A DNA stretch of 64,000 nt from Rhodoblastus sp. (lineage in GTDB: Bacteria; Pseudomonadota; Alphaproteobacteria; Rhizobiales; Beijerinckiaceae), in the NCBI GenBank assembly GCA_047971685.1, contig JBKDZW010000089.1, positions 4,488-68,487 on the forward strand, written 5' to 3'. A model generated the notes under the pieces. It made no database searches. It was not told the origin of the DNA and worked only from the letters and a program-made list of their open reading frames with translations. A program made the translations under genes and the position numbers. Every line of letters begins with the position of its first letter. The stretch's first letter is position 1. Positions 43,997 through 63,468 of this stretch are shown piece after piece.

Positions 43997-44641
43997 TCAC
44001 CGCCAAGCGAAAACCGGCTGTTCGAGATTGGCGACGCGCGTCACCCTGCCGGCCACGAGTTCGCGGAACTGGTAGAGGAAGGCGGCTGTCGGCGCATGTA
44101 TCGTGCTGTCCCAGATTCGCAGGCGAATGACGGGACGGTCGCTTTCGGGAATCGACAGGAATTCCACGCGGGAATCATCGGATAATTGCGTCATCGGAAT
44201 ACGATGCACGGATTGCACTTCGTCGGGGTTGGGCGAAAATTCCTTGATGCGCCCGCCCCAGACGACGACCGGCGTCACGACATAGCCGGAGCGCGTGGGA
44301 TAATCGTCGAGCACTGCGAGCGTGTCGGAAGGCGCGATCCGCAAGCCGACTTCCTCGTCGAGTTCGCGCAGGGCGGCCTCGACGATCGTTTCGCCCTTGT
44401 CGCAGCGCCCGCCCGGCAGCGCCCATTGCGCGGCGTGCTTGCGCAGCCTGGCGGAACGGCGCGTCAACAGCAGGCTGGGATCGTTCTTGTTGACGCCATC
44501 GACCACCACCAGCGCGACCGCGGCGTGTTTGAGCCCCTGCGCCTCGGCAGGCGGGGGCAGGCGCGTGAAGGCGGCGCACAGCTCCGTCAGCCGGGCGCGG
44601 CCGGCCTCGTCAATGGAAAAGCTCATGTCCTTTGGTCGCAT
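43997..44641 (-). CDS. NUDIX hydrolase (CoA-pyrophosphatase-like)
   Basis: Nudix box GGRCDKGETIVEAALRELDEEVGL. The preceding …LLLTRRSARLRKHAAQWALPGG… is typical of the CoA pyrophosphatase subgroup. Confidence 0.83.
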   Translation of the reverse strand: MRPKDMSFSIDEAGRARLTELCAAFTRLPPPAEAQGLKHAAVALVVVDGVNKNDPSLLLTRRSARLRKHAAQWALPGGRCDKGETIVEAALRELDEEVGLRIAPSDTLAVLDDYPTRSGYVVTPVVVWGGRIKEFSPNPDEVQSVHRIPMTQLSDDSRVEFLSIPESDRPVIRLRIWDSTIHAPTAAFLYQFRELVAGRVTRVANLEQPVFAWR

Positions 44642-44673
44642 AACGCGCCGCCGCCGACAAATGCGCGACGCGC

Positions 44674-45909
44674 CTATCTGATGACCGATCCGGCTATGGC
44701 GGCCAGCCGGCCGCTATAGGCGGCCTCGCTGAAATGCGCGTCATAGGCGGCGCGCGAGTCGCTTTTTTCACGCTCGGCCGGCGCCGGCGCGGGCCTTGCC
44801 GCCGCCTTGCGCAAGGCCGCCGCAAACCCCTCGGCCTCATCGGCGACGACGACATTGGAAAGCGCTGCGGGATCGAGATTCATGCCGCGGAAAGCGTGTG
44901 TCGTGGCGATCAGCGGCAGGCCGCTGGCCATGGCCTCCACGCTCTTGATCGACAGGCCGGTGCCGCTGGTCGTCGGCAGCAACGCCAGCCGCGCGCCGGC
45001 GTAGATGTCGCCGATATGGTCGACGCGGCCGGCGAACCAGTCCCTGTATTTCTCATACAGCGCGGCGTCCGCCGATTTCACGCCATCGGCCACGGATCCG
45101 TAGATGCGCACGAAAACGCCCGGCGCGCGCGGCGCGACCTCGCGCAGGAACCACAGCGCGCTTTCGACATTGGCGCGGTTCCAGCTCGACACCAGCACGA
45201 TCTCGCCGCCGCCCGGCCCCGTGGGCGCAGGCGGCACGGCAGGATAGATCAATTCGTGTCGCTTTTCGGGAAGCAGCTTGCGGAAGACCTCGTCCTCCTC
45301 GGCATTGAGATGCAGGAGCGCATCGGCCTTGCGCATGGCGTCGAGTTCGCGGGCAAGCATCTGCTCGTAGCTTGCCAGCGGGCGCAGCCAGGGCAGACCC
45401 TCGTTCATCAGGACGAACTGGCGCGCCTGCACATCGTGCGTGTCCATCAAGACCGGCGCGCGCGAACCGGATGCGCCGTTGCGCGCCAGCCGCAACGCCA
45501 CGGGCATGCAGAAGAAATGGTTGCAATGAACGATGTCGAATTTATTGCCCAACAGATCGGTTGGCAGCTTTGCGCGCGAAATCATGCCGGTGCGGATGAC
45601 GGCCTGATCGCCGTGGATATAAGGCCAGAGCACGTCATGCAGGAATTTCGGCGCAAACACCGACGCCAGCGGCGCACCGACGCAATGGCGCTCCTGCGCA
45701 TCGAGTTCGGGCGTGGCTTTGGCAAATTTCTTCCAGATCCAGCCGCGATCCGGCACGAAACCCGGCTGATCGGAACAGGCGACGGCGACGACGCGCGCGC
45801 CAAGCTGCGTCCAGGCCTCGATCTGGCCGAGCACCACCTGATAGGTGCCGCAGGAATGCCAGGCCGGATGAACGATGGCGACGCTGCGCCCCGCAAACGG
45901 CGCTCTCAC
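44674..45909 (-). CDS. GT-B-fold glycosyltransferase, paralog B of a tandem pair
   Basis: A GTG start at 45909 overlaps the upstream gene's stop (GTGA). The protein begins VRAPFAGRSVAIVHPAWHSCGTYQV…. The C-terminal …TSGTGLSIKSVEAMASGLPLIAT… is a GT1/GT4-like E-x7-E-type region. It is collinear with paralog A over its whole length. The 841-aa ORF in the track is a read-through artefact. Confidence 0.8.
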   Translation of the reverse strand: MRAPFAGRSVAIVHPAWHSCGTYQVVLGQIEAWTQLGARVVAVACSDQPGFVPDRGWIWKKFAKATPELDAQERHCVGAPLASVFAPKFLHDVLWPYIHGDQAVIRTGMISRAKLPTDLLGNKFDIVHCNHFFCMPVALRLARNGASGSRAPVLMDTHDVQARQFVLMNEGLPWLRPLASYEQMLARELDAMRKADALLHLNAEEDEVFRKLLPEKRHELIYPAVPPAPTGPGGGEIVLVSSWNRANVESALWFLREVAPRAPGVFVRIYGSVADGVKSADAALYEKYRDWFAGRVDHIGDIYAGARLALLPTTSGTGLSIKSVEAMASGLPLIATTHAFRGMNLDPAALSNVVVADEAEGFAAALRKAAARPAPAPAEREKSDSRAAYDAHFSEAAYSGRLAAIAGSVIR

Positions 45910-47177
45910 AGGCGCACCAGCGGCAGAACGATGTCGCGGATTTTTCGCGCATAGGCGTCGTTGGAGAAATTCTCCTCGTAGAATTTCCGCGTGTCGCTGT
46001 TTTCGCGTGCTTTGCCCGATGCGGCGGGGTTGTTTTGCGGGCCGGCAAGCGCTGCTGCTTCGAGCGCGGCCGCAAACTCCGCCGCGCTTTCGCAGACCGA
46101 GACATTGGCGAGGCTGGCGGGGTCGACATTCATGCCGCGAAAGGCCTGCGGCGTGGCGATCAGCGGCGCGCCCGAAGACAGCGCCTCGACCGCCTTGATC
46201 GAAAGCCCGTGCCCTTCCGTGGTCGGCAGCAGGACAAGGCCGGCATTGGCGTAGACGGCGCCAATGTTGTCGACGCGGCCGAGAAAGGCATGGCGCCATT
46301 TCTCGTAAAGCGCGGGATTGCGCGCTTTCAGGGCGCCGTCGACATTGCCGGCGATCTCGACTTTCGCGCTGCGCGCGCACGGCGCGACATGTTCGAGAAA
46401 CCATTCGACGCTGAGCGTATTGGGATAATTTCCGCTCGCCACGATGGCGATATTGGCCCCGCCCGGCCCGGTCGGCGCTTCCTCGACTGCGGGGTAGACG
46501 AGTTCGTTGCGCATATCCGGCAGGAGTTGCGCGAATGTCGCCCATTCCTGCGCATTGAGGTGGACCAGCATGTCGGCCTTGCGCAAAAACTCCAGTTCGC
46601 GCGCCAGCAATTGATCGTAGGTCGCGCGCGGCGGCACGACGAAATGACCCTCGTTGCGCAGGTCGTATTGCAGGGCCTGCACGTCCTGCGTCTCGATCAC
46701 GAGCGGCGCCGTGGCCGAGAGATTGCGCGCGGCGGGAATGCAGAAAAAATGATTGCAATGGATGAGATCGATGGGGCGCAGCGCCAGTTCGTCCGGCAGG
46801 CGGGCAAATTGCGTCATCGCCGCCGTGGCGCGGGCGTGATCGCCGTGGATCAGCGGCCAGTAGAGCTGCGTCCAGAAGGCGGGTCTGGCGAAAACCGATC
46901 CCGGCATATTGGCGAAATAGCGCTCGTCGGCCGGCATGTCCCGGGTATTTTCGACATAATCGCGCCAGCGCGGGCTTTCCAGACTCGACTGGCCGGGCGG
47001 CCATTCGCGCACGGCCAGCGAGACGACATGGGCGCCGAGCCGCTTGTAGACAGCGGCCTGACTGACGTTGACCTGATAGGAGCCGCAGGAATGCCAGGCC
47101 GCATGCACGATCGCGACCGTCTTGCCTGCGAGTGGAAGCTCCTGATCTTCTTCCGTTTTTGGAATAGGCAGCGTCAA
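45906..47177 (-). CDS. GT-B-fold glycosyltransferase, paralog A of a tandem pair
   Basis: TTG start. Motifs …KTVAIVHAAWHSCGSYQV…IHCNHFFC…TEGHGLSIKAVEALSSGAPLIAT…. Confidence 0.8.
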   Translation of the reverse strand: MTLPIPKTEEDQELPLAGKTVAIVHAAWHSCGSYQVNVSQAAVYKRLGAHVVSLAVREWPPGQSSLESPRWRDYVENTRDMPADERYFANMPGSVFARPAFWTQLYWPLIHGDHARATAAMTQFARLPDELALRPIDLIHCNHFFCIPAARNLSATAPLVIETQDVQALQYDLRNEGHFVVPPRATYDQLLARELEFLRKADMLVHLNAQEWATFAQLLPDMRNELVYPAVEEAPTGPGGANIAIVASGNYPNTLSVEWFLEHVAPCARSAKVEIAGNVDGALKARNPALYEKWRHAFLGRVDNIGAVYANAGLVLLPTTEGHGLSIKAVEALSSGAPLIATPQAFRGMNVDPASLANVSVCESAAEFAAALEAAALAGPQNNPAASGKARENSDTRKFYEENFSNDAYARKIRDIVLPLVRL

Positions 47178-47275
47178 ATGGTCGTTCCTGCCGGGGCATC
47201 CCGCCTATTGTCCGGGCAGCTATTGTCTTGGCGGCCCCGGATATGGGACAAGGCGCGCGCGGACCCGGGAAGCCA

Positions 47276-48160
47276 ATGGGATCGGCGGGTCTTCATAAGG
47301 ATTATTTCGTGTCGAATCCAGAGCAAACGGCCAACGCCCCCAAACGCGGCATGGCCATTGTCGCAAACGACAGGATCGCGGAATGGCTCCTGCCCTTTCT
47401 GGAGAGCTGGAAGCGCGCCAATGCGCATATTCCGCTCTATCTCATCCCCTATGACGACAATCTGACCGTCACCCGCCGCGCCGCAAAGACCTATGGCGTG
47501 ACCATGGTGGAAGAGGTCGACAAGCGCATCGACCGGCTGGCGGCCGATCTCTATCCGCTTTTTCCCGGCCATCGCCGCCGCCTGCGCAAGCTGCAATCGC
47601 TGGCGCTGCCGCTCGACGAGGTGATCTATATCGACGTCGATATCGTGCTGTTCCGCGATTTCGCGCCGATGTTCGGCCTTCTGAAGAAGGACGAGACGGA
47701 ATTCATCGTGGCCTCGCCGTCCTTTGAATATGTCTACAACAAGAAGAAGGACGATTATCCAGACCTCAAGGACGCGCTGTTGTTCAACGACGGCTATTTC
47801 GTCACGTCCAGCAAGTTTCTCAATCTCGACATGTTCGTCGAGACCATGGCGCGCGATGCGAAACTGTTCCACAAGGTGCGCAAGCGCGGCATGCTGTTTG
47901 CCCAGCCCGTGGTGAATTTCACCTGCCACCGCAACGCCGTGAACATCCGCCTGATGTCCGACCTCATCGAAAACGCCTCGCACGAGACCTTCTACAAGGC
48001 GCAAGGCGTCACGTTCAAAGATGGCGCGCCGCTGGATTTCCAGGGCAAGGAAATCTACTTCTGTCACTGGGCGGGCCTGCAAAGCACACCCGGCAAACTC
48101 GCCTTCGACGACGCCTGGCGGGAGTTTTCGGATGCAGCCTGGGCGAAGGTCGGGCGGTAG
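47276..48160 (+). CDS. Hypothetical protein, possibly a GT-A/GT8-like nucleotide-sugar transferase
   Basis: ORF 47228..48160. I prefer the ATG at 47276, which is preceded by GGGAAG. DxD-like motif VIYIDVDIVLF, then …LFNDGYFV…. The family assignment is weak. Confidence 0.5.
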   Translation: MGSAGLHKDYFVSNPEQTANAPKRGMAIVANDRIAEWLLPFLESWKRANAHIPLYLIPYDDNLTVTRRAAKTYGVTMVEEVDKRIDRLAADLYPLFPGHRRRLRKLQSLALPLDEVIYIDVDIVLFRDFAPMFGLLKKDETEFIVASPSFEYVYNKKKDDYPDLKDALLFNDGYFVTSSKFLNLDMFVETMARDAKLFHKVRKRGMLFAQPVVNFTCHRNAVNIRLMSDLIENASHETFYKAQGVTFKDGAPLDFQGKEIYFCHWAGLQSTPGKLAFDDAWREFSDAAWAKVGR

Positions 48161-48172
48161 CAAACGGCGGAC

Positions 48173-49324
48173 ATGAACCAGACGCCGAAAATCCTTTCGA
48201 TCTATCTCGGCAAGCGCGTGCTGCTGGCAACGCTCGTCGTGCAGGTCGCGCTGACCATTCCGGTCGTGCTGTCGGCTCTGTTCCATCAATTGCCGCCGGC
48301 GGCGCTGCGTGGCGGCCTACTCGGCCCCGCGCTCGTCGGCACCTTGCCGACCGTCACCTATATCGCGCTGCCGATTTCGGTCGGCGTCGCCGCAGCGCTT
48401 GAATTTTCGCGCATGTCGTCCGAAGGCATGGTGGCGGTGCTCTATTCGCTGCGCCTGTCGGCCTGGTCGATTGCGCGTCCCGCCATCGTCTGCGCGCTCG
48501 GGGCGACCGCCGTCGGCTATCTGTGCTCTTGCTGGCTGGCGCCGCGCTATGTCGGCTCCATGCACGACGTGCTGAACGTCATCCGCCACTCGCTCAACCA
48601 TCGCATGCTCGAGGCCGGCCAGTTCTATTCCTTCGACGAGGGCCGGCGCATCGTCTTTTTCGAGCGCTGGGAGACCCCCGACATAGCCGCCAAGGTGTTC
48701 ATCCGGCAGCGCTCGCCGGAAAAGAAGGTCGAGGAGACGATCACGGCCGATCGCGCGGAATTCCGCCGCAACGATTTCAATGTCGTGATGATCCTGACCC
48801 ACGGGCAGATCCAGAGCCGCCCCGACGACGGGCGGCGCGTACGCGTGTCCGATTTCGACGAATACGCGATTTCGCTGCCCATGCAGGGCGCCAAGGCGCT
48901 GCCCTCGCGCTCCTGGAAGGGCGTGTTCGAGCTGAGCATGCCGGATTTCTTCGCCTATATGAAATACGCCATGGTCGACCGCCGCAATTTTGCGGAATGG
49001 GCGTCGGAGGCCGTCAAAAGGCTGGTGATTCCGGCGCTGGCGCTCGCCCATACGCTGCTGGGCGTCGGGCTGGTGCTCAATGTCGCCAGCGCAACCGGGC
49101 GGCGCTCGGCCGCCGGCGGGGCAGCGGTCGCCGCGCTGCCGGTCGTCCATATCGCCATTCTGGTGGCCGCCGAAACGCTGATCCGCGCCAATCCGGCGCT
49201 GGCGATCCTCGTCATCGGCCTGGCGCTTGCCGAAATCGCTTGCGGCATATGGCTCATCCAGCGCCAGCAGGTCGGCGATGCGCGCCGGGCGCCGCAAATT
49301 GCGCCGGTGCTTGCGGGGGCGTGA
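48173..49324 (+). CDS. LptF/LptG (YjgP/YjgQ) family permease, orphan copy
   Basis: N-terminal pattern …ILSIYLGKRVLLATLVVQVAL…. Also …EGMVAVLYSLRLSAWSIARPAIVCAL…. A periplasmic-sized middle region is followed by three C-terminal TM segments. It begins 12 nt after the preceding gene. Confidence 0.72.
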   Translation: MNQTPKILSIYLGKRVLLATLVVQVALTIPVVLSALFHQLPPAALRGGLLGPALVGTLPTVTYIALPISVGVAAALEFSRMSSEGMVAVLYSLRLSAWSIARPAIVCALGATAVGYLCSCWLAPRYVGSMHDVLNVIRHSLNHRMLEAGQFYSFDEGRRIVFFERWETPDIAAKVFIRQRSPEKKVEETITADRAEFRRNDFNVVMILTHGQIQSRPDDGRRVRVSDFDEYAISLPMQGAKALPSRSWKGVFELSMPDFFAYMKYAMVDRRNFAEWASEAVKRLVIPALALAHTLLGVGLVLNVASATGRRSAAGGAAVAALPVVHIAILVAAETLIRANPALAILVIGLALAEIACGIWLIQRQQVGDARRAPQIAPVLAGA

Positions 49325-49399
49325 ACCTGACCCCGGACCTTCAGGCTTTGCGGCCCGTTCGCGCGGCCTGTTCCGCCCAGGCCAGCGGCTTTTGCGGGA

Positions 49400-50200
49400 T
49401 CAGGCCGCCTGCCCGCCACCGACGACGCCAGCGGCCTCGTCTTCCTCGTCCTTGCGGACTGCGGCCTTGTAGGCGGGGATGATGTCGTCGGGATGGCCCA
49501 CTTCGCGCACCACGCCGGCGTCGATCCAGATCACGCGGTCGCAAAGCGTGCGCAGATAGTCGAGCCCGTGCGAAACGACCAGAATCGTGCCGCGCTTGGA
49601 AAATTCGGCGATGAAATTCTCGCATTTCTGCGCGAAAGCCTCGTCGCCGACCGAAAGCGCCTCGTCGACGATCAGAATGTCGGCGTCGACATGGGCGCAG
49701 ATGGCGAAGGCAAGCCGCGCGATCATGCCGCTCGAATAGAGCTTCATCGGCTGATCGAAAAACATGCCGATCTCGGCGAAATCGGCGATCTGATCGAGCT
49801 TGGCGACGATCTCGCGACGCGAGAGCCCCAGGACCGCGCCGCCGATGATCGCATTTTCGCGGCCGGACAATGTGGCGTCGAAGCCCGAGCCAAGCGCCAG
49901 GATAGGCGCAATGCGGCCGCGGATTTCGACCGTGCCGGTGGTCGGGCGCGTGATGCCGCACAGGATCTGGAGAAGCGTCGTCTTGCCCGCGCCGTTGCGG
50001 CCGATGATGCCGACGCATTCGCCCTTCCTGATATCGAAGGTGATATCGCGCAGCACCCAATGCTTTCTGTAATAGGTCTTGGCCCAGCCAAACAGCGCCT
50101 GCATCAACTGGTCGTTGCGGCGCAGGTAGAGCTGGAAGGCCTTGCCTGCGTTGCGGCAGGAAATCGCCAGTTCGGAAGACATCGGGCGATCAGAGGACAT
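49400..50200 (-). CDS. ABC transporter ATP-binding protein (Wzt/KpsT/TagH-like polysaccharide/lipid export type)
   Basis: Walker A GRNGAGKTT. Signature YSSGMIARL. Walker B ILIVDEAL. The N-terminus …LFGWAKTYYRKHWVLRDITFDI… is typical of ABC-2 exporters. An alternative start lies at 50182. Confidence 0.9.
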   Translation of the reverse strand: MSSDRPMSSELAISCRNAGKAFQLYLRRNDQLMQALFGWAKTYYRKHWVLRDITFDIRKGECVGIIGRNGAGKTTLLQILCGITRPTTGTVEIRGRIAPILALGSGFDATLSGRENAIIGGAVLGLSRREIVAKLDQIADFAEIGMFFDQPMKLYSSGMIARLAFAICAHVDADILIVDEALSVGDEAFAQKCENFIAEFSKRGTILVVSHGLDYLRTLCDRVIWIDAGVVREVGHPDDIIPAYKAAVRKDEEDEAAGVVGGGQAA

Positions 50201-51023
50201 CGACGATCACCGATTTGTATTCCTTGAAGAAACCGTAGCCGAACAGAAAGACAGCGTAAGAGGCCACGAAGCACGCCAGATACATCCACGGATCGGGAAA
50301 GCGCTCGTAGATCACAAGATCGCGCAGCATGGCGATGTAATCGCCTACCAGGTTGAGCTTGATCCAGGGTTGCAGATTGGCCGGCAATTGTTCGATCTGG
50401 AAGAAAACCGGCGTGGCGAACATCATCAGCGGCACGATCGAAACCATGAGATGGGCGACGTCGCGGGTAAAAGCGCCCAGCGCCATCAGGAACCAGACGG
50501 TGCCGAGCATCAAAAGCATGAACGGCAGGATGATGAGGGGTACGAAAATCACCTTCCACGAAATGAAGTGGACGGTGGCCAGCCGCACGGCGAGCAGCGT
50601 GGCGAAGCTGATCGCGCCATAGACGAGCGCGCGGATGGTGGAGGTCCAGGCGATCGTCTCGGACGGAAAGATCGACTTCTTGATGAAATGGACGTGCTCG
50701 TGCAGCAGCGTGGGCGAGCGCGCCGCCAGTTCCGCGAACACGTTGAACAGGATGAGGCCGCAAAAACTTGCCGCTGCATAATCGTAGATCGGCACGCCGG
50801 CTGCGACCGTCGGCGTCGCAATGGTGAAGATCGCAGTATAGACCAGCAGCATGGCGAGCGGCGCGAAGATCGCCCAGATCCAGCCCAGGAAGGAATCGCG
50901 GAACCGCGAGGTCAGTTCGCGCCGCACGACCGCGCGGATCAGCTCCCGGTGGTGCCAGGCCCGCTCGAACGGCTCAGTCAGGAATATCGGCAAGTCCTGG
51001 ATTTTCAACGCTGTGATTTCCAA
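50190..51023 (-). CDS. ABC-2-type transporter permease (Wzm/KpsM-like)
   Basis: TTG start. …HRELIRAVVRRELTSRFRDSFLGWIWAIFAPL… matches the ABC-2 N-terminal signature. Six predicted TM segments. Confidence 0.87.
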   Translation of the reverse strand: MEITALKIQDLPIFLTEPFERAWHHRELIRAVVRRELTSRFRDSFLGWIWAIFAPLAMLLVYTAIFTIATPTVAAGVPIYDYAAASFCGLILFNVFAELAARSPTLLHEHVHFIKKSIFPSETIAWTSTIRALVYGAISFATLLAVRLATVHFISWKVIFVPLIILPFMLLMLGTVWFLMALGAFTRDVAHLMVSIVPLMMFATPVFFQIEQLPANLQPWIKLNLVGDYIAMLRDLVIYERFPDPWMYLACFVASYAVFLFGYGFFKEYKSVIVDVL

Positions 51024-51080
51024 ATATCAGAAAGCTCGGATCGTGCGGCCGGGAACGCGGGGATTTGCAGAAACGTCCGC

Positions 51081-51143
51081 AGACGCCGTCCTTGCGGCAT
51101 GGAGCGCCGTCCTTGCGGCAAGAAGCGCCGTCCTTGCGGCATC
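51081..51143. repeat. 21-bp tandem repeat, 3 copies, in the divergent promoter region between the ABC-2 exporter and the ACP operon
   Basis: (a/g)(g/a)(a/g)CGCCGTCCTTGCGGCA-- units at 51081-51101, 51102-51122 and 51123-51143. Confidence 0.9.
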
Positions 51144-51504
51144 GCCTTGACGGCGCGGTCTTTTCGGATCGACCAAAATATCCGCCTCAGGCCCGAATTC
51201 ACCTTTTCCCCGGCGTCCGTCGCACATGCGCGACAACGCCGCGGCCCCCGACCCCGCGCTGTAGACCAGTTCCGGCGGGCTTCGTCAACGTCCGGCGGGC
51301 CGGGCTGCGGGCCGGACTGCCGGCGTTGAGAGGCGAGTTTGCCGTCAGGGGCTTTATTTCCGGGCGCGACTGCCTTAACGAAGGCCAGCGCGAACCGCCC
51401 GGTTGCGGTCGCCGAGCGTTCGGGCGGGCCCGGCCGCTGATATTCACGTCCGACCCGGCGCCAGGCGGCCGGGCGGTCCGAAACCCGAGAAATGGGGACG
51501 CCCC

Positions 51505-51774
51505 GTGGACTCTGTTGCGCAAGGCGATGAATTCTACGCCCAGATCATTGAAGTGATTTCGAAAGAGGGCATGGTCGAGGCCGACAAGGTCAAGCCCGAA
51601 GCCACAATCGAAAGTCTCGATCTCAAGTCTATCGACATCGTCATGATTCTGACGGCGATCGAGGAAAAATTCGACGTCTACATTCCCATGGACGGGGCCT
51701 TTCAGGAGGCCAAGACCGTTCAGGATCTGATCGACGCGCTGGCGACCCATATCAACAAAGAGAAGAAAAACTGA
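51505..51774 (+). CDS. Acyl carrier protein (dedicated, non-housekeeping type)
   Basis: PP-binding pattern …IESLDLKSIDIVMILTAIEEKFDVYIP…, with Ser in the LKS position of the usual D-S-L motif. GTG start chosen at 51505 because there is no in-frame ATG. The stop is directly followed by the KAS ATG (TGAATG). Confidence 0.72.
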   Translation: MDSVAQGDEFYAQIIEVISKEGMVEADKVKPEATIESLDLKSIDIVMILTAIEEKFDVYIPMDGAFQEAKTVQDLIDALATHINKEKKN

Positions 51775-52992
51775 ATGACGCAGGGCCGTCGGGTCGTCAT
51801 CACCGGCATGGGCGCCGTCTCCGGCGCCGGCGTCGGATGGAAGCCGCTGTGGAACGCCGCCCGCGAGGGCGCGAGCGTGGTCCGCGCGCTTGAATTTGCG
51901 CGCGATTATCCCGGCCGCATTCGCATCGGCGCGCAGGTTCCCGATTTCGATGCGGCCAAGCTGATCGAGCGCTCCACGCTGATGTATTGCGATCCCTTCA
52001 CGCAATACGCGATTGTGGCCGCCGATCAGGCGGTGGCCGAAGCCGGTTTCGACAACAAAAATGTCGGCGGCGCCGATTGCGCGGTCATTCTGGGGTCGGG
52101 CATTGGCGGCATCCGCACCGTCGACGACGGTCTCTTCGCGCTCTACGCAAAGGGCGTGAAGCCGGAACCGCTGAGCATTCCCAAGCTGATCGCCAGCGCC
52201 GGCCCCTCGATGCTGTCCATCCGCTACGACGCGCACGGGCCGGTGTTTGCGGTGGCCAGCGCGTGTTCCTCCGCAAATCAGGCGATCGGCATGGGCATGC
52301 ACATGGTGCGCTCCGGCATGGCCGAGCGCGCCATTGTCGGCGGCGCCGAGGCGAGCCTTTCGGTCGGCACCCAGATGACCTGGGAAATGCTGCGTGTGCT
52401 GACGCCGGACAAATGCCGCCCCTTCTCCAAGGGCCGCAACGGCATGAGCATCGGCGACGGCGCGGCCATGTTCGTTCTGGAAACCGAGGAGGCGGCGATG
52501 GCGCGCGGCGCGCCGATCCTGTGCCGCCTCGTGGGCTACGGCACTTCGGCGGACGCGCGCGACCCGATCCGCCCCGACGCGGACGGCGCCTCGCTCGCCA
52601 TGCGCCGCGCCATCGCGGACGCCGATATTCCCGCCGACACGATCCAGTACGTCAATGCGCACGGCACGGCGACCGCGCTCAACGATCCCACGGAAGCCGA
52701 GGCCATGGGCCGCATTTTCGGCGACAGGCTGGCCGAGGTCGCGGTCTCCTCGACCAAGCCGGTGCACGGCCATGCGCTGGGAGCTGCCGGCGCGCTGGAG
52801 CTGGTCTGCACCATCATGGCGATGCGCGAAAACATTGCGCCGCCGACGATCAATTTCCTCGAACCCGACCCCAAATGCCCTGTGGATTGCGTGCCCAACC
52901 AGGCGCGCGCCATGACGATCCGCACGGCCATGACCAATTCCTTCGCCTTTGGCGGCGTGAACGCCTCGCTCGTCCTCCAGGCGGCGGACTGA
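51775..52992 (+). CDS. Beta-ketoacyl-ACP synthase (KAS I/II, FabF-like)
   Basis: …RRVVITGMGAVSG…. Active-site Cys context AVASACSSANQAIG. His motifs NAHGTAT and …KPVHGHALGAAG…. 405 aa. Confidence 0.92.
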   Translation: MTQGRRVVITGMGAVSGAGVGWKPLWNAAREGASVVRALEFARDYPGRIRIGAQVPDFDAAKLIERSTLMYCDPFTQYAIVAADQAVAEAGFDNKNVGGADCAVILGSGIGGIRTVDDGLFALYAKGVKPEPLSIPKLIASAGPSMLSIRYDAHGPVFAVASACSSANQAIGMGMHMVRSGMAERAIVGGAEASLSVGTQMTWEMLRVLTPDKCRPFSKGRNGMSIGDGAAMFVLETEEAAMARGAPILCRLVGYGTSADARDPIRPDADGASLAMRRAIADADIPADTIQYVNAHGTATALNDPTEAEAMGRIFGDRLAEVAVSSTKPVHGHALGAAGALELVCTIMAMRENIAPPTINFLEPDPKCPVDCVPNQARAMTIRTAMTNSFAFGGVNASLVLQAAD

Positions 52993-52999
52993 GGGCGTC

Positions 53000-53422
53000 A
53001 TGGGCGTGGAGAGGCCGCTCGGGCCGCAGGAAACGGCCCTCGGTCCGTTCGAGGCTCTGGCCGATCCCGCCGCCATCGCCGCATTCAAGGCGGCGCTTGA
53101 CGCCCCGGGCGCGGTTCTTGACGCATCCGGCGCCGAAATTCCGGCGACTTTCCCGATTGTCTGGCTCTCTCTCCCCGCGCTCAAGACGGCGCTGCGCGAA
53201 GCCGCCGGCGCCGGCCACCTGCCGGTCCACGAATCCCAGTCCTTCGATTATGCGCAGCCGCTCGTTTCCGGCGCCGCCTATCGTATGAGCGTTGCGGCGC
53301 AACGCGAGAACGCCCCCCCGCGCCTCGTGGTCGAGGCTAAGGTCGCAGACGCCTCCGGCGCGAAAATCGTGACCATGCGCGCTGCGCTGCGGCTCGTTCC
53401 GCTGGCGGAGGGCGGCGCATGA
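53000..53422 (+). CDS. Hotdog-fold protein, MaoC_dehydrat_N / HadA-like (non-catalytic dehydratase subunit candidate)
   Basis: 140 aa, with pattern …PATFPIVW…ESQSFDYAQPLVSGAAY…RLVVEAKVADASG…. 4-nt overlap with the following MaoC gene. The assignment is by fold-like pattern and context. Confidence 0.6.
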   Translation: MGVERPLGPQETALGPFEALADPAAIAAFKAALDAPGAVLDASGAEIPATFPIVWLSLPALKTALREAAGAGHLPVHESQSFDYAQPLVSGAAYRMSVAAQRENAPPRLVVEAKVADASGAKIVTMRAALRLVPLAEGGA

Positions 53423-53823
53423 AACTTCCGGTTTCGCGCGGCGACACGATGCCGGAAACCATTGTCGGCCCGTTCGACGCGGCTGCGGTCGCAGCCTATG
53501 CGGCCGCCTCCGGCGACGACAATCCCTTGCATCTCGACGCTGCGCTTGCCGCCCGCGCAGGATTTGCCGCTCCGCCAGTCCATGGCATGCGGCTGATGGC
53601 CGAAATCGCGCCTGCGCTTGCCGCCTGGCGGCCGGACATGGCGCTCAAGCGCCTGTCGGCCACTTTCGTCGAGCCGTTGCTGGTCGGCGAGGAGGCGCGT
53701 CTTACGGCCCGCGTTCTTCGCGCGGAAGGCGACGTTCTGATGCGCATCGCCATCCAGGGGCCGCGTCGCGGTCCAAGCGTTCTGGCGGAAGCCGTTCTGG
53801 TTGCAAGGGCGGGCGCGTCATGA
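53419..53823 (+). CDS. MaoC-like (R)-specific hydratase/dehydratase (HadB-like catalytic subunit candidate)
   Basis: Hydratase-2 type motif …ASGDDNPLHLDAALAARAGFAAPPVHGM…. 134 aa. ATGA overlaps on both sides. Confidence 0.8.
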   Translation: MKLPVSRGDTMPETIVGPFDAAAVAAYAAASGDDNPLHLDAALAARAGFAAPPVHGMRLMAEIAPALAAWRPDMALKRLSATFVEPLLVGEEARLTARVLRAEGDVLMRIAIQGPRRGPSVLAEAVLVARAGAS

Positions 53824-54617
53824 GTCCTGCGCCGCGCTCCATCCTGATTACCGGCGCCTCCAGCGGCATTGGCCGGGCGCTTGCCCGCGAATATGCCGCG
53901 CCCGGCGTACGGCTGACGCTGGTTGGCCGCGACGGCGCGCGGCTTTCGGCCGCCGCCTCGGAATGCCGCGTCAAGGGCGCGGAAGTCGAAATCGGCCAGG
54001 TGGATGTGCGCGACCGGCAGGGCATGCACGATTTCTTGCGCGCTGCGGATGCAAAAGCGCCGCTCGATCTGGTGGTCGCCAACGCCGGCGTCAACACCGG
54101 CCTGCCGGCAGGCGCGCTCGCCGAAGATCCGGAAGCTGTGCGCGGCATTTTCGCGATCAACCTCCTCGGCGTTTTCAACACGGTGGAACCCATGATCGAG
54201 CCGATGGCCGCGCGTGGAAAAGGCGTGATCGCGATGACCGGCTCGATCGCCGCCGTGCGCGGCCTGCCCTATTCGCCGTCCTATTGCGCGACCAAGGCGG
54301 CGGTCCATCTTTACGCGGAATCCTTGCGCGGAACGCTCGCCCGCAAGGGCGTGACGGTCAGCCTGATCGTGCCGGGCTTCGTCCATACCGCGCTCAACGA
54401 GAAGCTGACCTCGCCGAAGCCGCTCGCCATGACCGACGAGCGCGCCGCGCGCATCGTCCGGCGCGGGCTCGACCGGCGCAAGGCCAACATCGTCTTCCCG
54501 CGCCTGCTGTATTGGGGGGCGCGGCTGCTGACGGTCCTGCCGGCGCGGCTCGTCGATTTCTTCATGGTGCGCCAGTATGTCGACGTGCCGGTCACGCGCG
54601 AGAGGATGACGCCTTGA
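53820..54617 (+). CDS. Classical SDR oxidoreductase (ketoacyl-ACP reductase or 3-ketosphinganine/oxo-ceramide reductase candidate)
   Basis: TGASSGIGRALA Rossmann motif, NAG motif, and catalytic S…YCATK. Confidence 0.88.
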   Translation: MSPAPRSILITGASSGIGRALAREYAAPGVRLTLVGRDGARLSAAASECRVKGAEVEIGQVDVRDRQGMHDFLRAADAKAPLDLVVANAGVNTGLPAGALAEDPEAVRGIFAINLLGVFNTVEPMIEPMAARGKGVIAMTGSIAAVRGLPYSPSYCATKAAVHLYAESLRGTLARKGVTVSLIVPGFVHTALNEKLTSPKPLAMTDERAARIVRRGLDRRKANIVFPRLLYWGARLLTVLPARLVDFFMVRQYVDVPVTRERMTP

Positions 54618-55786
54618 ACGTCGCTCTCGACATCCTGCGTTGGGCCACGCTCGTTTTCTGCGCGATCTCGCTCGCCGGCCTCGTGCTGACCGTAGCGCTC
54701 GGACTGATCTCGCCGCTGATCCATGCGCGCCGCGCGCGCAGGTCCGATCTGCCGCCGATCAGCTTTATCCTGCCTATCAAGGACTGGGCGACAAGCTTCG
54801 GTCCTTCGCAATCCTCGGTCTTTGCGCTCGACTATCCCGAATATGACGTGACCGCGACGGCGGCGGAGGCCGAATCGCAGGCCGTAACGGCGATGCGCGA
54901 CATTATTGCCGCCCATCCCGACCGCCCGGCCAAACTGGTGCAATCGACGGCCAGCTTTGCCGTCAGCCCCAAGGTCAACAATATTTACAGCGCGATCGAG
55001 GAGGCCAGATACGATCTCATCGCCACCAAGGATTGCAACATCGTGTTGCCGCCGCGCACCGCGCGCATGGCGGTCGCCGCCATGACCGAGAACGTGGGGC
55101 TTGTGACCGCCATAACCGAGGCGCGCGGCGCGACCTCGCTGGCGGCGCGGATCGAGGCCTCGATCATGAACCAGTCGCATGCGCGCTATCTTCACGCAGC
55201 GGCCGCGCTGGGGCTCGGTTTCGGGCTCGGCAAGCTGATGATCTTCAAGCGCTCGGATCTGCACCGGGCCGGCGGTTTTGAAGCCATCGCCCATACCGTG
55301 GGCGAGGATTCGGCGACCGCCCATGCGCTTGCAGGCATCGGCCTGCGCACGGTCATCATCGGCGCGCCGATCTATCAGGTGCTGGGCGCGCGCAAATTCG
55401 GCGATATGCACAACCGTCAGATGCGCTGGGCCGTCATAAGGCGCCAGAACGAACTGGCCGGTTTTCTGGCCGAACCTTTCGGCCTGTCGGTCTTTGTGGC
55501 GCTGGCGGCGGCTTTTGCGGCGCCGCTTCTTGGCTGGAGCGCGCCGGGCGCCTTTCTGGCGACGCTCGTCTTCTGGTTTGCCTGCGAAACCGCGCTTGCC
55601 TTGGCGCGGGGCTGGGATGTATCGGTGAGCGCGCCCTTCGTCATGGTCGCCCGCGATGCGATGATGGCTTCGGTCTGGCTGCGCGCCTGGTTCACCAGGC
55701 GGGTCGTCTGGGCGGCCGAAGTTTACGAGGCGCAGCAGGAGCGTGGCTCGATGCCTGCCCCCGCCCAGAAAAGGAATGATGCGTGA
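54614..55786 (+). CDS. GT21-family glycosyltransferase (ceramide glucosyltransferase / UGCG-like)
   Basis: A TTG start overlaps the SDR stop (TTGA). Regions align by eye to human UGCG: LPPISFILPIK…FALDYPEYDV, SPKVNNIYSAIEEARYDLIATKDCNIVLPP, MTENVGLVTAI, GEDSATAHAL, and Q-x-RW (NRQMRWAVIRR). The 661-aa ORF in the track includes an out-of-frame leader. Confidence 0.8.
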   Translation: MNVALDILRWATLVFCAISLAGLVLTVALGLISPLIHARRARRSDLPPISFILPIKDWATSFGPSQSSVFALDYPEYDVTATAAEAESQAVTAMRDIIAAHPDRPAKLVQSTASFAVSPKVNNIYSAIEEARYDLIATKDCNIVLPPRTARMAVAAMTENVGLVTAITEARGATSLAARIEASIMNQSHARYLHAAAALGLGFGLGKLMIFKRSDLHRAGGFEAIAHTVGEDSATAHALAGIGLRTVIIGAPIYQVLGARKFGDMHNRQMRWAVIRRQNELAGFLAEPFGLSVFVALAAAFAAPLLGWSAPGAFLATLVFWFACETALALARGWDVSVSAPFVMVARDAMMASVWLRAWFTRRVVWAAEVYEAQQERGSMPAPAQKRNDA

Positions 55787-57060
55787 CGGCGCAAGGATTG
55801 CTCGTCGGATTGATCGACATTGCGCTCACGCTATGCGTTCTCGGCATGGCGGCGATTGGCGCGAGCCTGCTCGTTCTGGTGGTTCGCTTTCTCTACGACC
55901 AGGCGCGCGGCGCAGGCGACGGTTCACGCGACGTCGCGCCGCTGGCGGAAGCCGACCTGCCGCATGTCGTCCTGCAAATTCCCGTTTTCAACGAGCCGCG
56001 CGTGGTGATCGGCGCCCTGCGCGCCGCCGCCGCGCTCGATTGGCCGCGCGAAAAACTGCACCTTCAATTGCTCGACGATTCCACCGACGAGACCACCGAG
56101 CGCGCCGCCGAACTGATCGCGGAATTGCGCGCCGAGGGCCACGACGTGCGCCATGTGCGCCGCGAGGACCGCACGGGCTTCAAGGCCGGCGCGTGCGCCG
56201 CCGGTCTGGCGCTCGACGATTCGCCGTTCGTGGCGATGCTCGATGTCGATTTCCGCCCGCCGGCCGACTGGCTGCGCAAGGCCATTCCCGTCATCGTCGG
56301 CGATCCCAAGGCCGGCTTCGTGCAGGCGCGCTGCGAATTCGCCAATTACCGCAAAAACTGGCTGACGCGCGTACAGGGCCTGATCCTCGACGGCCATTTC
56401 ATGATCGAGCAGCGCACCCGCGCCAATCTCGGCTGGCTGTTCCAGTTCAACGGCACGGGCGGCATATGGCGGCGCGCAGCCATCGATTCGGTCGGCGGCT
56501 GGCAGGATTATTCGCTGACCGAAGACCTCGACCTCACCATCCGCACCGCGCTTGCCGGCTGGCACGGCCGGTTCATTTCCGAGCCCGCCAGTCCCGGCCA
56601 GATGCCCGAGGGCATGCGCGACTGGCGCCGCCAGCAGCGCCGCTGGTCCAACGGCTTCATTCAGGTCGCCCAGCGGACGCTCGGACCGATCTGGACCGCG
56701 CCATGGAGCCTGGCCGAACGCCTGTCCTCGATCATGCTCGTGCTGCATCAGGTGTTCTTTCCGTTGTGCGCGGGCGCAATCATCCTCATCATTCTCGGCA
56801 TTCTGGCGCGAGGAATCTCGATTGCAGCCTATCTGCCGCTGTTCGGCCTGATCTTCCTGATGGTCTGCGCGGTCGTGATCGGCATGACCCTGCCGCCCTC
56901 TCTCGCGCTCAAGCGTGGGTCGTTCTGGCGCTATCTCGCCACCATGGCCATGCTGCCGCCGCTGTTCATCTATCTGGCCGTCGCCAATGCGCCGAAAATC
57001 ATCCAGACCGCGCGCGGGCGGCAGGAGCATTTCAAGCGCACGCCCAAGAAAGAGCATTAA
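55783..57060 (+). CDS. Family 2 glycosyltransferase, processive type (CslA / MGlcDG-synthase-like), membrane-embedded
   Basis: A GTG start overlaps the GT21 stop (GTGA). Motifs: …VVLQIPVFNE…, LLDDSTD, MLDVDF, TEDLDL and QQRRW (QxxRW). N-terminal and multiple C-terminal TM segments. Confidence 0.87.
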   Translation: MTAQGLLVGLIDIALTLCVLGMAAIGASLLVLVVRFLYDQARGAGDGSRDVAPLAEADLPHVVLQIPVFNEPRVVIGALRAAAALDWPREKLHLQLLDDSTDETTERAAELIAELRAEGHDVRHVRREDRTGFKAGACAAGLALDDSPFVAMLDVDFRPPADWLRKAIPVIVGDPKAGFVQARCEFANYRKNWLTRVQGLILDGHFMIEQRTRANLGWLFQFNGTGGIWRRAAIDSVGGWQDYSLTEDLDLTIRTALAGWHGRFISEPASPGQMPEGMRDWRRQQRRWSNGFIQVAQRTLGPIWTAPWSLAERLSSIMLVLHQVFFPLCAGAIILIILGILARGISIAAYLPLFGLIFLMVCAVVIGMTLPPSLALKRGSFWRYLATMAMLPPLFIYLAVANAPKIIQTARGRQEHFKRTPKKEH

Positions 57061-57259
57061 CGCAACCTGCCCACGGCAATTTCACGGGGCGCGGTCGGAG
57101 ACGGCCGAAGACGGGCAGGCGCAGCCCTTGCCGCTTCGGCATCGTTTGCAGCAGACCTGCCTCGCGCCGTTTGCGGACCGTCTGCGCTTGGCGCGGCAGG
57201 AAGGCGCTTGCTAGTCTTGCCTCGATAATCTGCCTGGAACCAGAACCTTCATGTCGCAG

Positions 57260-57334
57260 GAACGCCTGAAAGGCGCCTTTTAAAGAACGCCTGAAGGGCG
57301 CGTTTTAAAGAACGCCTGAAAGGCGCGTCGCGAA
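57260..57334. repeat. 25-bp tandem repeat, 3 copies, each unit containing a small hairpin plus T-run
   Basis: GAACGCCTGAAAGGCGCCTTTTAAA-type units at 57260-57284, 57285-57309 and 57310-57334. Each has the stem CGCCT-GAA-AGGCG. Confidence 0.92.
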
Positions 57335-57455
57335 GGATGGCCAAAGGCCCGGAAACCCGGCTTGTGTTTCGGGACGGGCGCCTTGCGGCCCTCCGGCATG
57401 AAGGGCCGGGGCGGCCGGAGTTTCCCTCCAGGCTCCGATAAACGGGAGGATCGGC

Positions 57456-58907
57456 ATGGACGACAAACTTGCATTCGCCTCGGCGGCCACGCTCGCAAAA
57501 CTGGTGCGCGAAAAAAAGGTCGGGGCGGTCGAACTTCTGGAATTCTTTCTTGCGCGCGTCGAACGCCACAATCCCACTCTCAACGCCATCATCGTCCAGC
57601 GCGCGGACGCCGCCAGAAAAGAGGCTGCGGCCTGCGACGCCATGACCGCGAAAGGCCAGTCGATGGGGGCGCTGCACGGCGTGCCCATGACGGTCAAGGA
57701 ATCCTTCGATGTCGCGGGCACGCCGTCCACCTGGGGATTGACGGCGTTCCGCGACAATATCGCGGCCAGGGACGCGCTTTCCGTCGAGCGGTTGAAGGGC
57801 GCTGGCGCGGTCGTTTTCGGCAAGACCAATGTGCCGGCCTGGCTTGCCGACTGGCAATCGTTCAACCCGATCTACGGCACGACCAACAATCCCTGGAATG
57901 TCGGGCGCACGCCGGGCGGTTCTTCAGGCGGCAGCGCGGCGGCGCTGGCGGCGGGACTCACGGGGCTGGAGATAGGCAGCGACATCGGCGCCTCCATCCG
58001 CGATCCCGCCCATTATTGCGGGGTTTACGGCCACAAGCCGACCTTCGACATCTGCCCGCGCGACGGCCATCTCCTGCCCGGCGCCTATGCCCACGGCGAT
58101 ATTTCCGTGATCGGCCCGCTGGCGCGCTCGGCCTACGATCTGGAGACCGCGCTCGACATTATCGCAGGGCCCAATGCGCTCGAGGCCACGGGGCTGCGCC
58201 TGGAATTGCCGCGCTCGAAAAAGACGAAACTGTCGGAGTTTCGCGTCGCCGTCATGCCTTCGGCCGACACCGCGCCGGTCGATGGCGCCGTGCGTGAAAA
58301 AATCGAGGAGCTTGCCGGTTTTCTGGAAGGCCAGGGCGCCCATGTCGATCGCGCCGCGCGCCCCGTCGATCCAGCCGCCGCGCACGAGACCTACATCATG
58401 CTCCTGCGCTCGGCGACCAGCGGCGCGCTCGATGACGCGGTTTACGAAAAATTGCTGGCTGCGCGAAAAGAGGTTGCAGGGCGCAACGATTATTTCGCCT
58501 GGCATGCGCGCGCAAACACGATGGGCCATCGCGAATGGCTGCGCTGGAACAATGCCCGCGCGAAAATGCGGCTCGACTGGCAGGCGTTTTTTACCCGCTT
58601 CGATCTCCTGCTCTGCCCGACCGCCACGACAACCGCGTTTCCGCACATGCAGACCGGCGAGCGCTGGGAACGCATGATTTCGGTCGACGGCAAGGACCAG
58701 CCGACGACGACGCAGCTTTTCTGGGCGGGCTATTCCGGCATGGTCGATCTGCCATCGACCATCGCGCCGCTCGGGCTGGCGAAAGACGGCCTGCCGGTCG
58801 GCGTGCAGATCGTGGCGCCGGCCTATCGGGATCACAGCGCCATCCGCTTCGCGCAATTGCTGGAAGACCGGTATCGCGCGTTCGAGCCGCCGCCGGGGTT
58901 TGCATAA
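57456..58907 (+). CDS. Amidase-signature (AS) family amidase
   Basis: AS motif GGSSGGSAAALAAG, catalytic Lys context VPMTVKESF, and …GSDIGASIRDPA…. RBS GGGAGGA. Confidence 0.9.
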   Translation: MDDKLAFASAATLAKLVREKKVGAVELLEFFLARVERHNPTLNAIIVQRADAARKEAAACDAMTAKGQSMGALHGVPMTVKESFDVAGTPSTWGLTAFRDNIAARDALSVERLKGAGAVVFGKTNVPAWLADWQSFNPIYGTTNNPWNVGRTPGGSSGGSAAALAAGLTGLEIGSDIGASIRDPAHYCGVYGHKPTFDICPRDGHLLPGAYAHGDISVIGPLARSAYDLETALDIIAGPNALEATGLRLELPRSKKTKLSEFRVAVMPSADTAPVDGAVREKIEELAGFLEGQGAHVDRAARPVDPAAAHETYIMLLRSATSGALDDAVYEKLLAARKEVAGRNDYFAWHARANTMGHREWLRWNNARAKMRLDWQAFFTRFDLLLCPTATTTAFPHMQTGERWERMISVDGKDQPTTTQLFWAGYSGMVDLPSTIAPLGLAKDGLPVGVQIVAPAYRDHSAIRFAQLLEDRYRAFEPPPGFA

Positions 58908-58939
58908 GACCGGCCAGTCGGCCAGCCATGGCGGCGGGA

Positions 58940-59626
58940 TCAGAGCGGCTTGTCGCCGGGCTTGTCGTCCTTGGCATAGCCGGTGCCGAACACATCGTCC
59001 CAATAAGGGCAGCTCACGCCATAGCCGCGGTCGGGATCGCGGAAATGATGCAGGAGGTGCGCACGGCGCAGGATCTGCTCGACCCTGGTGTGCGGCGGGC
59101 GGTGATGAATGTGGTAGTGGATCTCGTCGTAGAGCACGTAGCCGACGAGGAAGCCGGCCGTGATCGAATAGGACAGAGGCTCCGGAAACAGCAGGGTGAT
59201 CACGACATAAGCGAGCGCCATCAGCGGCACGCTCATCAGCAGGGGCATGACGAGGCGCAGGGGATCGCTCGGATGCACGTGATGCACGCCGTGCAGCAGG
59301 AAGTGGATGCGCTCGCCGATCCTGCCGGGAAATTCCGTGTGAAAGACCCAGCGATGGAAGACATATTCGCAGAGCGTCCAGGCGATATAGCCGAAGATCA
59401 GGCAGGCGATGGTGATGAACGCCGGTTGCCCCCTGGCGCCGAGCCAGCCGAGCCAGGCGGCGAAGGGAAGATAGAACAGCGGCGCCCACCAGGGTACGCG
59501 CGAAAGCAGGTCCAGCACACGATTGTCGAAAATGCGCGGCGAGGCCGCCAGAAGCTCGGCCTTGCTCATGCCCTGCGTCGACATATGCGCGTATGGGTCG
59601 CGCGCGGTTTGCGTCGTGTCGCTCAT
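58940..59626 (-). CDS. Fatty acid 2-hydroxylase (FA2H/Scs7-like, fatty-acid hydroxylase superfamily) lacking a cytochrome b5 domain
   Basis: His boxes and flanks align by eye with human FA2H: WTLCEYVFHRWVFH, HFLLHGVHHVHPSDPLRLVMP, GYVLYDEIHYHIHH and LRRAHLLHHF…GYGVS…WDDVFGT. Confidence 0.85.
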   Translation of the reverse strand: MSDTTQTARDPYAHMSTQGMSKAELLAASPRIFDNRVLDLLSRVPWWAPLFYLPFAAWLGWLGARGQPAFITIACLIFGYIAWTLCEYVFHRWVFHTEFPGRIGERIHFLLHGVHHVHPSDPLRLVMPLLMSVPLMALAYVVITLLFPEPLSYSITAGFLVGYVLYDEIHYHIHHRPPHTRVEQILRRAHLLHHFRDPDRGYGVSCPYWDDVFGTGYAKDDKPGDKPL

Positions 59627-59636
59627 GCCAGTCTCC

Positions 59637-60647: not shown

Positions 60648-60663
60648 GTCTGTCTTTCCCGCC

Positions 60664-61863: not shown

Positions 61864-61935
61864 GGCGCCGCCCATAGCACGGACGCAGGCCGGAACCAAC
61901 GCCGGCCTGCGCGAATTGGAGCGGTTCCAGACGGG

Positions 61936-63461: not shown

Positions 63462-63468
63462 CTTCCAC

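Follow-up and report, generated by a model that had tools for sequence, protein, structure and literature searches.

The window analysed here is a stretch of 64,000 nucleotides of high-GC DNA from a metagenome-assembled genome (MAG) of Rhodoblastus sp. (contig JBKDZW010000089.1), and the system in question is a group of four genes at positions 47276-51023 within it. Likely genes were chosen by codon-position GC and then checked with Pfam and NCBIfam profiles. The four genes encode GT8L, a glycosyltransferase (GT) resembling family GT8; a single permease of the LptF/LptG family, here designated LptFx; and the ATPase and permease of an ABC-2 exporter resembling Wzt and Wzm. The original prediction for this DNA had named the same four genes and assigned them to the LptF/G, ABC-2 and GT8-like families, and both the open reading frames (ORFs) and the profiles bear it out. 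Its description of the layout also agrees with the coordinates: LptFx is co-oriented with GT8L, 12 nt behind its stop codon; LptFx and the ATPase gene converge, with 75 nt between them; the ATPase and permease genes overlap by 11 nt; and this pair is divergent from an operon encoding an acyl carrier protein (ACP), a ketoacyl-ACP synthase (KAS), a hotdog protein, a MaoC-type dehydratase, a short-chain dehydrogenase/reductase (SDR), GT21 and GT2. The control region shared by the two divergent units, given as 480 bp, measures about 380-400 bp instead (51024 to 51402/51423).

The features of the locus are collected in Table 1. GT4b is transcribed away from GT8L and LptFx. At a distance of 2 kb from LptFx is the ACP-GT21 operon, and at 12.6 kb a gene resembling serine palmitoyltransferase (Spt), so that LptFx adjoins predicted sphingolipid biosynthesis genes in this window. 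Two start positions are uncertain. The ORF of GT4a is open upstream, and the Joint Genome Institute (JGI) annotation gives 406 aa for its counterpart in locus L001. GT8L may start at 47276 or, likelier, at 47351, as JGI gives a 269-aa product on a 92%-identical contig.

Table 1 Features of the locus, with positions counted from the first nucleotide of the window (a dot marks a non-coding feature)
Feature	Position	Strand	Basis
GT4a, GT4-family glycosyltransferase, ~406 aa	44674-45900	-	Glyco_trans_1_4 47.5 bits and Glyco_trans_4_4
GT4b, GT4-family glycosyltransferase, GT4a paralog	45906-47177	-	Glyco_trans_1_4 49.2 bits; synteny kept
GT8L, GT8-like GT-A glycosyltransferase, 269 aa	47351-48160	+	Weak Nucleotid_trans/GT8 matches, motifs
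LptFx, single divergent LptF-type permease, 383 aa	48173-49324	+	PF03739 116.7 bits
Wzt/TagH-like ABC ATPase, 266 aa	49400-50200	-	ABC_tran 73.9 bits
Wzm-like ABC-2 permease, 277 aa	50190-51023	-	ABC2_membrane 62 bits
wzm/ACP divergent intergenic region	51024-51402	.	Conserved non-coding blocks
Lipid operon: ACP, FabF-like KAS, hotdog protein, MaoC/HadB-like dehydratase, SDR ketoreductase, GT21, GT2	51403-57060	+	Pfam/NCBIfam
Amidase-signature enzyme	57456-58907		NF004816 612 bits
Predicted ceramide operon	58940-63273	-	Pfam, PDB matches, AlphaFold2 model
FA_hydroxylase	58940-59626	-	Pfam
Lipid_DES/FA_desaturase	59637-60647	-	Pfam
U411, predicted 411-aa tandem-GNAT N-acyltransferase	60664-61899	-	AlphaFold2 fold; no Pfam match
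Spt-like alpha-oxoamine synthase	61936-63273	-	PDB best matches Spt 3a2b/8guh

Membership of LptFx in the LptF/G family, which the original prediction had made depend on a hidden Markov model, is upheld by a match to PF03739 that exceeds the cut-off of 27.9 bits and spans profile positions 2-353 of 353. The protein fails both equivalog models, scoring 116.1 bits against a cut-off of 230 for LptF (TIGR04407) and 47.2 bits against 240 for LptG (TIGR04408). Sequence matches in the PDB (nine LptF, one weak LptG) favour a position nearer LptF than LptG. An AlphaFold2 model built on an alignment of 30 orthologs (predicted local distance difference test score, pLDDT, 86.4) has six transmembrane (TM) helices, with a periplasmic beta-jellyroll inserted after TM3 and before TM4 (about residues 151-235), and its Foldseek matches in the PDB at E<=0.001 are solely LptF and LptG chains. 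Residue E84, which is E or D throughout the family, stands in the model where the predicted coupling helix begins. As modelled, LptFx has the LptF/G fold.

The family is well conserved, with a mean column identity of 68% in its alignment. LptFx shares 24-29% identity with alphaproteobacterial proteins named LptF by the Prokaryotic Genome Annotation Pipeline (PGAP; P0223, P0174 and P0210 among those compared), whereas these are 40-47% identical to each other across orders, and the other alphaproteobacterial LptFs tested pass the LptF equivalog model that LptFx fails. When 1.84 billion representatives were searched exhaustively with HMMER, the family emerged as a single full-length cluster at 50% identity; its nearest relatives outside the family, here called tier 2, are at most 37% identical to LptFx, and those looked up are rare, metagenomic and likewise below the LptF model cut-off. 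In a rough neighbor-joining (NJ) tree, LptFx and the tier-2 relatives form a clade apart from canonical LptF and LptG and from the Caulobacter paralogs LptF2 and LptG2. By sequence, LptFx thus belongs to a distinct clade and is not a canonical LptF ortholog. Exact-sequence look-ups returned no record for LptFx, nor for the database protein that matches U411 with 100% identity.

The gene is unpaired, as the original prediction had it. Searches by tblastn, and a Pfam scan of the large gene-like ORFs (four of which gave no Pfam match), detected no further LptF/G homolog and no LptC or LptA homolog in the window, and tblastn with 106 LptF/G representatives found no second LptF/G-like gene within 10 kb in 87 related loci. 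The lptF-lptG adjacency of canonical LptB2FG operons is thus absent at LptFx. Two tier-2 LptF-like genes, ~34% identical to LptFx, are also unpaired. One (P0128) has an MMPL transporter gene and an Aminotran_1_2 gene of 408 aa as its neighbours; in the vicinity of the other (L092, 10001-18325) are GT2 genes and an alpha-oxoamine-synthase-like gene of 421 aa, the product of which is 34% identical to the Spt-like protein of the window.

A total of 185,579 species genomes were scanned with a pattern for LptFx relatives. The family was found in 132, of which 80 were listed, and all 80 are of Beijerinckiaceae type: Rhodoblastus, Methylocapsa, Methylocella, Methylovirgula, some Methylocystis MAGs, Lichenihabitans and the RH AL1 group. 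The closest listed are Rhodoblastus MAGs at 91-92% identity. Proteins of the window were compared by tblastn with loci L001-L087; the neighbourhood counts below refer to the 80 species-genome loci (L008-L087), with denominators that vary by feature (60, 71, 72, 73, etc.). GT8L is present in the flank of LptFx in 67/73 loci and lies immediately upstream on the same strand in 53/71. Wzt and Wzm occur within 10 kb of LptFx in 43 of 72 loci, the Wzt gene being convergent and immediately downstream in 37 of 46, and a GT4 homologue is found at this distance in 42 of 60. The order and orientation GT4, GT8L-LptFx, Wzt-Wzm is kept from Rhodoblastus to Methylocapsa and Methylocella, down to ~50% protein identity, so the predicted association of LptFx with the pump and the GT8-like gene holds across genera. 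In locus L089 the module consists of just GT8L-LptFx and Wzt-Wzm, with unrelated genes on either side. The ACP...GT21 operon has a narrower distribution: it adjoins LptFx in all 16 loci with at least 60% identity and in 0/45 below 60%.

The Pfam scores of GT8L are below cut-off (Nucleotid_trans 20.2 bits; GT8 17.2 bits against 24.3) and it matches NF045582 with 52.7 bits; 16 of 28 orthologs match GT8 at E<0.01 (best 5.9e-6), and the motifs DVD (D95-x-D97) and HW.G (H239-W240-x-G242) are invariant. In the exporter, ABC2_membrane and ABC_tran both match above cut-off and identify an ABC-2 pair. Models for specific exporters do not reach their equivalog cut-offs: the best for the ATPase are TagH (215 against 538 bits) and galactan Wzt (197 against 400 bits), and further scores for the pair are 187 against 320 and 33 against 380 bits. 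The 266-aa ATPase is too short for a C-terminal carbohydrate-binding domain. The best PDB sequence matches of the permease are Aquifex Wzm (6m96/6oih), KpsM (8tsh) and TarG.

The genes on the far side of the pump look like a glycosphingolipid pathway. Among solved relatives of the Spt-like protein, Sphingobacterium Spt is best (209.6 bits), with 2-amino-3-ketobutyrate CoA ligase (KBL) close behind (206.7 bits). U411 stands behind the Spt-like gene in every locus compared; its AlphaFold2 model (pLDDT 82.6) has the tandem-GNAT fold expected for an N-acyltransferase, and 398 of its residues are 100% identical to ACK5JM_08090. The desaturase matches both Lipid_DES (30.9 bits, cut-off 23) and FA_desaturase (82.5 bits), in keeping with sphingolipid tailoring. 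The hotdog protein of the ACP operon has no Pfam match.

The two lipid operons recur, rearranged, in other genomes. The order Spt-U411-Lipid_DES (DES) is kept in CP024846.1 (L091) and in a Methylovirgula-type contig (L094), in both cases beside ACP, KAS, dehydratase (DH), MaoC, ketoreductase (KR) and GT2 genes; because this juxtaposition is found in two distant genomes, the two operons belong together. The lipid loci of L091 and L094 have no GT21 and hydroxylase genes, and homologues of these two genes stand beside LptFx in five other loci (L050, L065, L076, L082 and L086). Of the evidence gathered here, this movement of GT21 and hydroxylase genes between loci argues most strongly that the LptFx module works for that pathway too. 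Four further assemblies have U411 and LptFx on shared contigs, and in Rhodoblastus the module, the lipid operon and the ceramide operon are all merged in one cluster. Linkage between the two lipid operons, and of lipid genes with the LptFx module that the original prediction had placed beside them, is met with again elsewhere.

Two other identities of the ACP operon were considered and set aside. These were aryl-polyene clusters and acpXL-type very-long-chain fatty-acid clusters; the operon has neither an adenylation enzyme nor an LpxXL-type acyltransferase, and it repeatedly adjoins Spt-GNAT-Lipid_DES genes. The ACP/KAS/HadAB-like hotdog pair/ketoreductase set (51403-54617) is without an enoyl reductase, and its product may retain a double bond or hydroxyl, or the housekeeping FabI may be borrowed. 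In Rhodoblastus-type loci the amidase gene separates GT2 from the hydroxylase gene; it is missing from this position in L017. In L091, genes of the Acetyltransf_5 and Acyltransferase families (6313-8208) adjoin the Spt-U411-DES cluster. These resemble the ornithine-lipid genes olsB/olsA, and several membrane-lipid pathways may cluster there.

Within the divergent intergenic region, two blocks, 51260-51290 (TGTAGACCAGTTCC...CGTCAA(C/T)G) and 51349-51385 (GGCTTTATTTCCG...TAAC(G/C)AAGG), hardly vary among 12 loci with LptFx identities down to 65%, and the remaining spacer is unalignable. The block motif occurs once in the window, and the blocks are candidates for a shared promoter/operator. An Rfam scan of 44000-64000 gave no match, and in 47000-51800 a scan for promoters and terminators found no signal above that of shuffled controls. 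A ~22-bp unit (CGCCGTCCTTGCGGCA...) is present in three tandem copies at 51094-51160 and is missing from the corresponding region in related genomes.

The reading we put forward, at roughly even confidence, makes the four genes the core of a module that assembles and exports a glycoconjugate, is restricted to one lineage and has merged in this Rhodoblastus genome with a glycosphingolipid supercluster. From the gene content we infer a substrate, an order of steps and partner subunits as follows. Ceramide would be made in the cytoplasm by the Spt-like synthase, the tandem-GNAT N-acyltransferase, the Lipid_DES desaturase and the hydroxylase, with acyl chains supplied by the dedicated ACP/KAS/HadAB-like/KR set. 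It would be glycosylated on the inner leaflet by GT21, GT2, the two GT4s and the GT8-like enzyme, and flipped to the periplasmic leaflet by the Wzm/Wzt pump. LptFx could then extract the lipid through its TM cavity and pass it, via the beta-jellyroll, to the Lpt bridge toward the outer membrane. It may act as a homodimer or partnered with the housekeeping LptG, and would most likely be powered by LptB, by analogy with Caulobacter. The more specific proposal is that the pump is the missing glycosphingolipid flippase, acting in series with a probably homodimeric, single-gene LptF-like extractor from a third deep LptF/G clade that was recruited independently of the Caulobacter LptF2/G2; this we offer tentatively, as possible and well short of probable. 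Given the Caulobacter precedent of LptF2/G2 with a proposed Wzx-like flippase, the two-step model is plausible, though supported only in part. Flipping followed by Lpt-like extraction, as the original prediction had it, has a published parallel; a glycolipid substrate, as opposed to an undecaprenyl-linked polysaccharide or LPS, and cooperation of LptFx with the Wzt-like ATPase are suppositions of the model.

Several observations weigh against this reading. The best NCBIfam Spt model gives the Spt-like protein 294 bits against a cut-off of 500 (the BioF model gives 350 against 426); a homolog of CerR was not recognised. Of the loci below 60% identity, most have no lipid gene within 10 kb of LptFx. 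To our knowledge, the known substrates of Wzm/Wzt pumps are glycans linked to polyprenyl or lyso-phosphatidylglycerol and not ceramides. Moreover, the pump and GT8L are not exclusive to LptFx, as both are also found in ordinary plasmid polysaccharide clusters. Plasmid pHY1 of Methylovirgula sp. HY1 (L095, 14001-28801) carries, directly after repABC, a Wzm/Wzt pair 59% identical to that of the window; next come a gene for a glycosyltransferase of 933 aa and then GHMP kinase, SIS, epimerase and HAD-IIIA genes, which we take to be a heptose-type set, and there is no LptFx; a Methylosinus plasmid carries a GT8L homologue, 58% identical, with GT4 and likewise no LptFx. In the RH AL1-type clade, LptFx is itself found in an O-antigen-like sugar cluster, amid GT2, GT8, DegT, FdtA/acetyltransferase and GT4 genes, with no Wzm/Wzt and no lipid genes. 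These clusters, together with a lone lptF on an Azospirillum chromid between GT41 and GT9 genes, make a role in lipopolysaccharide (LPS) or polysaccharide export a serious alternative. The locus would then be an ABC-transporter-dependent pathway for an O-antigen or capsule-like glycan, built on undecaprenyl phosphate by GT4 and GT8L and flipped by Wzm/Wzt, with LptFx as an alternative LptF that fits the LPS extractor to the glycoform, and the sphingolipid neighbourhood in Rhodoblastus would be incidental clustering of envelope genes. The nearest solved relatives of Wzm, which are O-antigen and capsule exporters, agree with it. Against it, the annotated genes that surround the module in the window include none recognised as a WaaL-type ligase, polyprenyl-phosphate priming transferase, chain terminator or sugar-nucleotide gene; in L089 the module is reduced to its four genes; and GT21 and hydroxylase homologues shift between lipid and LptFx loci. 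A dedicated LptF would also be unneeded, since canonical LptB2FG in the bacteria studied transports rough and smooth LPS alike. We rate this alternative as less likely than the reading above, though serious. That the genes are neighbours with no functional coupling, LptFx having some unrelated membrane role, is very improbable: no experiment links them and ~40% of loci have no Wzm/Wzt within 10 kb, but order and orientation are conserved across genera at ~50% identity and the GT8L-LptFx gap here is only 12 nt.

The proposed pathway also supposes that LptFx is additional to a housekeeping LptF. Here, too, one result is unfavourable: no canonical LptF or LptG from an LptFx-bearing genome was among the search matches. 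In the representative search canonical LptFs were solely of Rhodospirillales type, and a follow-up with P0223 gave Thalassospira and Kiloniellales relatives; a literature search on lptF/lptG of Methylocystis, Methylocella or Rhodoblastus found nothing relevant. LptFx might instead be the housekeeping LptF itself, highly diverged and encoded away from lptG, a reading that the strong conservation within the family and the Azospirillum precedent of lptF with no adjacent lptG would also suit. It is very unlikely, because LptFx fails the LptF equivalog model and is separated from canonical LptFs by the identity gap described above. The family is, in addition, patchily distributed: it was found in just 132 species genomes, and none of the 80 listed is a named Methylobacterium, Bosea, Methylosinus or Beijerinckia. 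Within the Hyphomicrobiales, Brucella and Agrobacterium carry distinct LptF and LptG homologues, which are essential in Brucella (PMC9938171). Finally, MAG MFD01188.bin.1.69 has two LptFx-family genes on different contigs (L067, L084), one with the full module and one alone, either from paralogy within the family or from bin contamination. Taken together, these points are indirect arguments that LptFx may be an extra copy.

The upstream part of the window (1-44000) has unrelated content, including an MscS channel, a TRAP transporter, AtuA, a sulfatase, a radical-SAM/BATS protein and a class-I lysyl-tRNA synthetase. It also encodes a UDP-glucose 6-dehydrogenase (9970-11271), a possible source of UDP-glucuronate; pyruvate formate-lyase and its activase (16863-19979); a MoxR-DUF58-DUF4381-VWA-VWA operon (27198-31660); and a multihaem cytochrome with TPR repeats (33722-35746).

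The passage of bacterial sphingolipids across the inner membrane and on to the outer leaflet is largely an open question, and a 2024 paper in JBC stated that no sphingolipid flippase or transporter had yet been identified. A 2026 preprint on Caulobacter implicates the LptF2/G2 step only (bioRxiv 10.64898/2026.04.12.717747). For the flipping step, the locus described here provides a distinct and conserved candidate, the ABC-2 pump. An Lpt-type permease that was recruited a second time, independently, and that is unpaired would bear on whether such proteins can function as homodimers or exchange subunits with the LPS machinery. Rhodoblastus and methanotrophic Beijerinckiaceae are predicted to produce glycosphingolipids by way of a Lipid_DES desaturase of eukaryote-like type. 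If the pump and LptFx do act in series, acidophilic methanotrophs and Rhodoblastus would possess a second, LPS-independent route to the outer leaflet; if the locus instead serves a polysaccharide, specialised LptF isoforms for individual LPS glycoforms would be implied, which are likewise undescribed.

Among known systems, the canonical LptB2FG of E. coli, Enterobacter and Acinetobacter agrees with the LptFx model in its six TM helices, in a beta-jellyroll that separates TM3 from TM4, and in having an acidic residue where the coupling helix starts. E. coli LptF is 21% identical to LptFx over about half its length, and the E. coli arrangement is pepA-lptF-lptG, whereas LptFx stands amid glycosyltransferase, ABC-2 and lipid genes. 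A parallel in gene context is the chromid pAB510c of Azospirillum sp. B510 (NC_013857.1, L093, 4836-6979), in which a single PGAP-named lptF follows a GT41 gene and precedes a GT9 gene with no lptG adjoining; four Azospirillum replicons gave similar matches. Lone LptF genes beside glycosyltransferases therefore exist in alphaproteobacteria outside the Beijerinckiaceae, but the Azospirillum protein groups with canonical LptFs in the NJ tree, is ~24% identical to LptFx and has no adjacent ABC-2 pair.

The pump resembles Aquifex aeolicus Wzm/Wzt (6m96/6oih), KpsMT and TarGH in combining an ABC2_membrane permease with a TagH/Wzt-like ATPase, encoded by overlapping genes near glycosyltransferases. 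The sequence similarity is low (36 bits), and the Rhodoblastus pump is conserved beside an LptF-like gene. It also differs from the three exporters in that no ligase, polysaccharide co-polymerase or outer-membrane polysaccharide export partner was recognised near it, and its ATPase has no room for a carbohydrate-binding domain.

The system closest in logic is that of Caulobacter, in which second copies of LptC, LptF and LptG and the Wzx-like candidate flippase CC_1166, encoded in the sphingolipid locus, were proposed to move sphingolipids (Olea-Ozuna et al. 2024, PMC11324152). Loss of lptF2, lptG2 and lptC2 is reported to be tolerated only if the cells make no anionic sphingolipid, and LptF2 and LptG2 bind each other and the LPS ATPase LptB (bioRxiv 10.64898/2026.04.12.717747). 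LptFx was considered as an LptF2 ortholog and rejected: blastp gave 31 bits with LptF2 and 27 with LptG2 as against 94 with Nisaea LptF, and the NJ clades are separate. The Caulobacter LptF, LptG, LptF2 and LptG2 sequences were transcribed from Supplemental Figure 1, with possible gaps from optical character recognition. In both organisms, LptF/G-family permeases are encoded with sphingolipid genes (predicted ones in Rhodoblastus), the locus holds a candidate inner-membrane flippase and no dedicated LptB, and flipping followed by Lpt-type extraction is the proposed logic. Caulobacter has an F2/G2 pair and LptC2, while the Rhodoblastus locus has one LptF-type gene and no LptC2; the flippase candidate is a Wzx-like MOP protein in the former and the Wzm/Wzt ABC-2 pump in the latter; and the Caulobacter lipid is modified with phosphoglycerate, whereas the lipid predicted here would be glycosylated by GT21, GT2, GT4 and GT8L. 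The Rhodoblastus locus is therefore a candidate for a system that follows the recently described Caulobacter-type logic with different parts, and its pump a candidate sphingolipid flippase.

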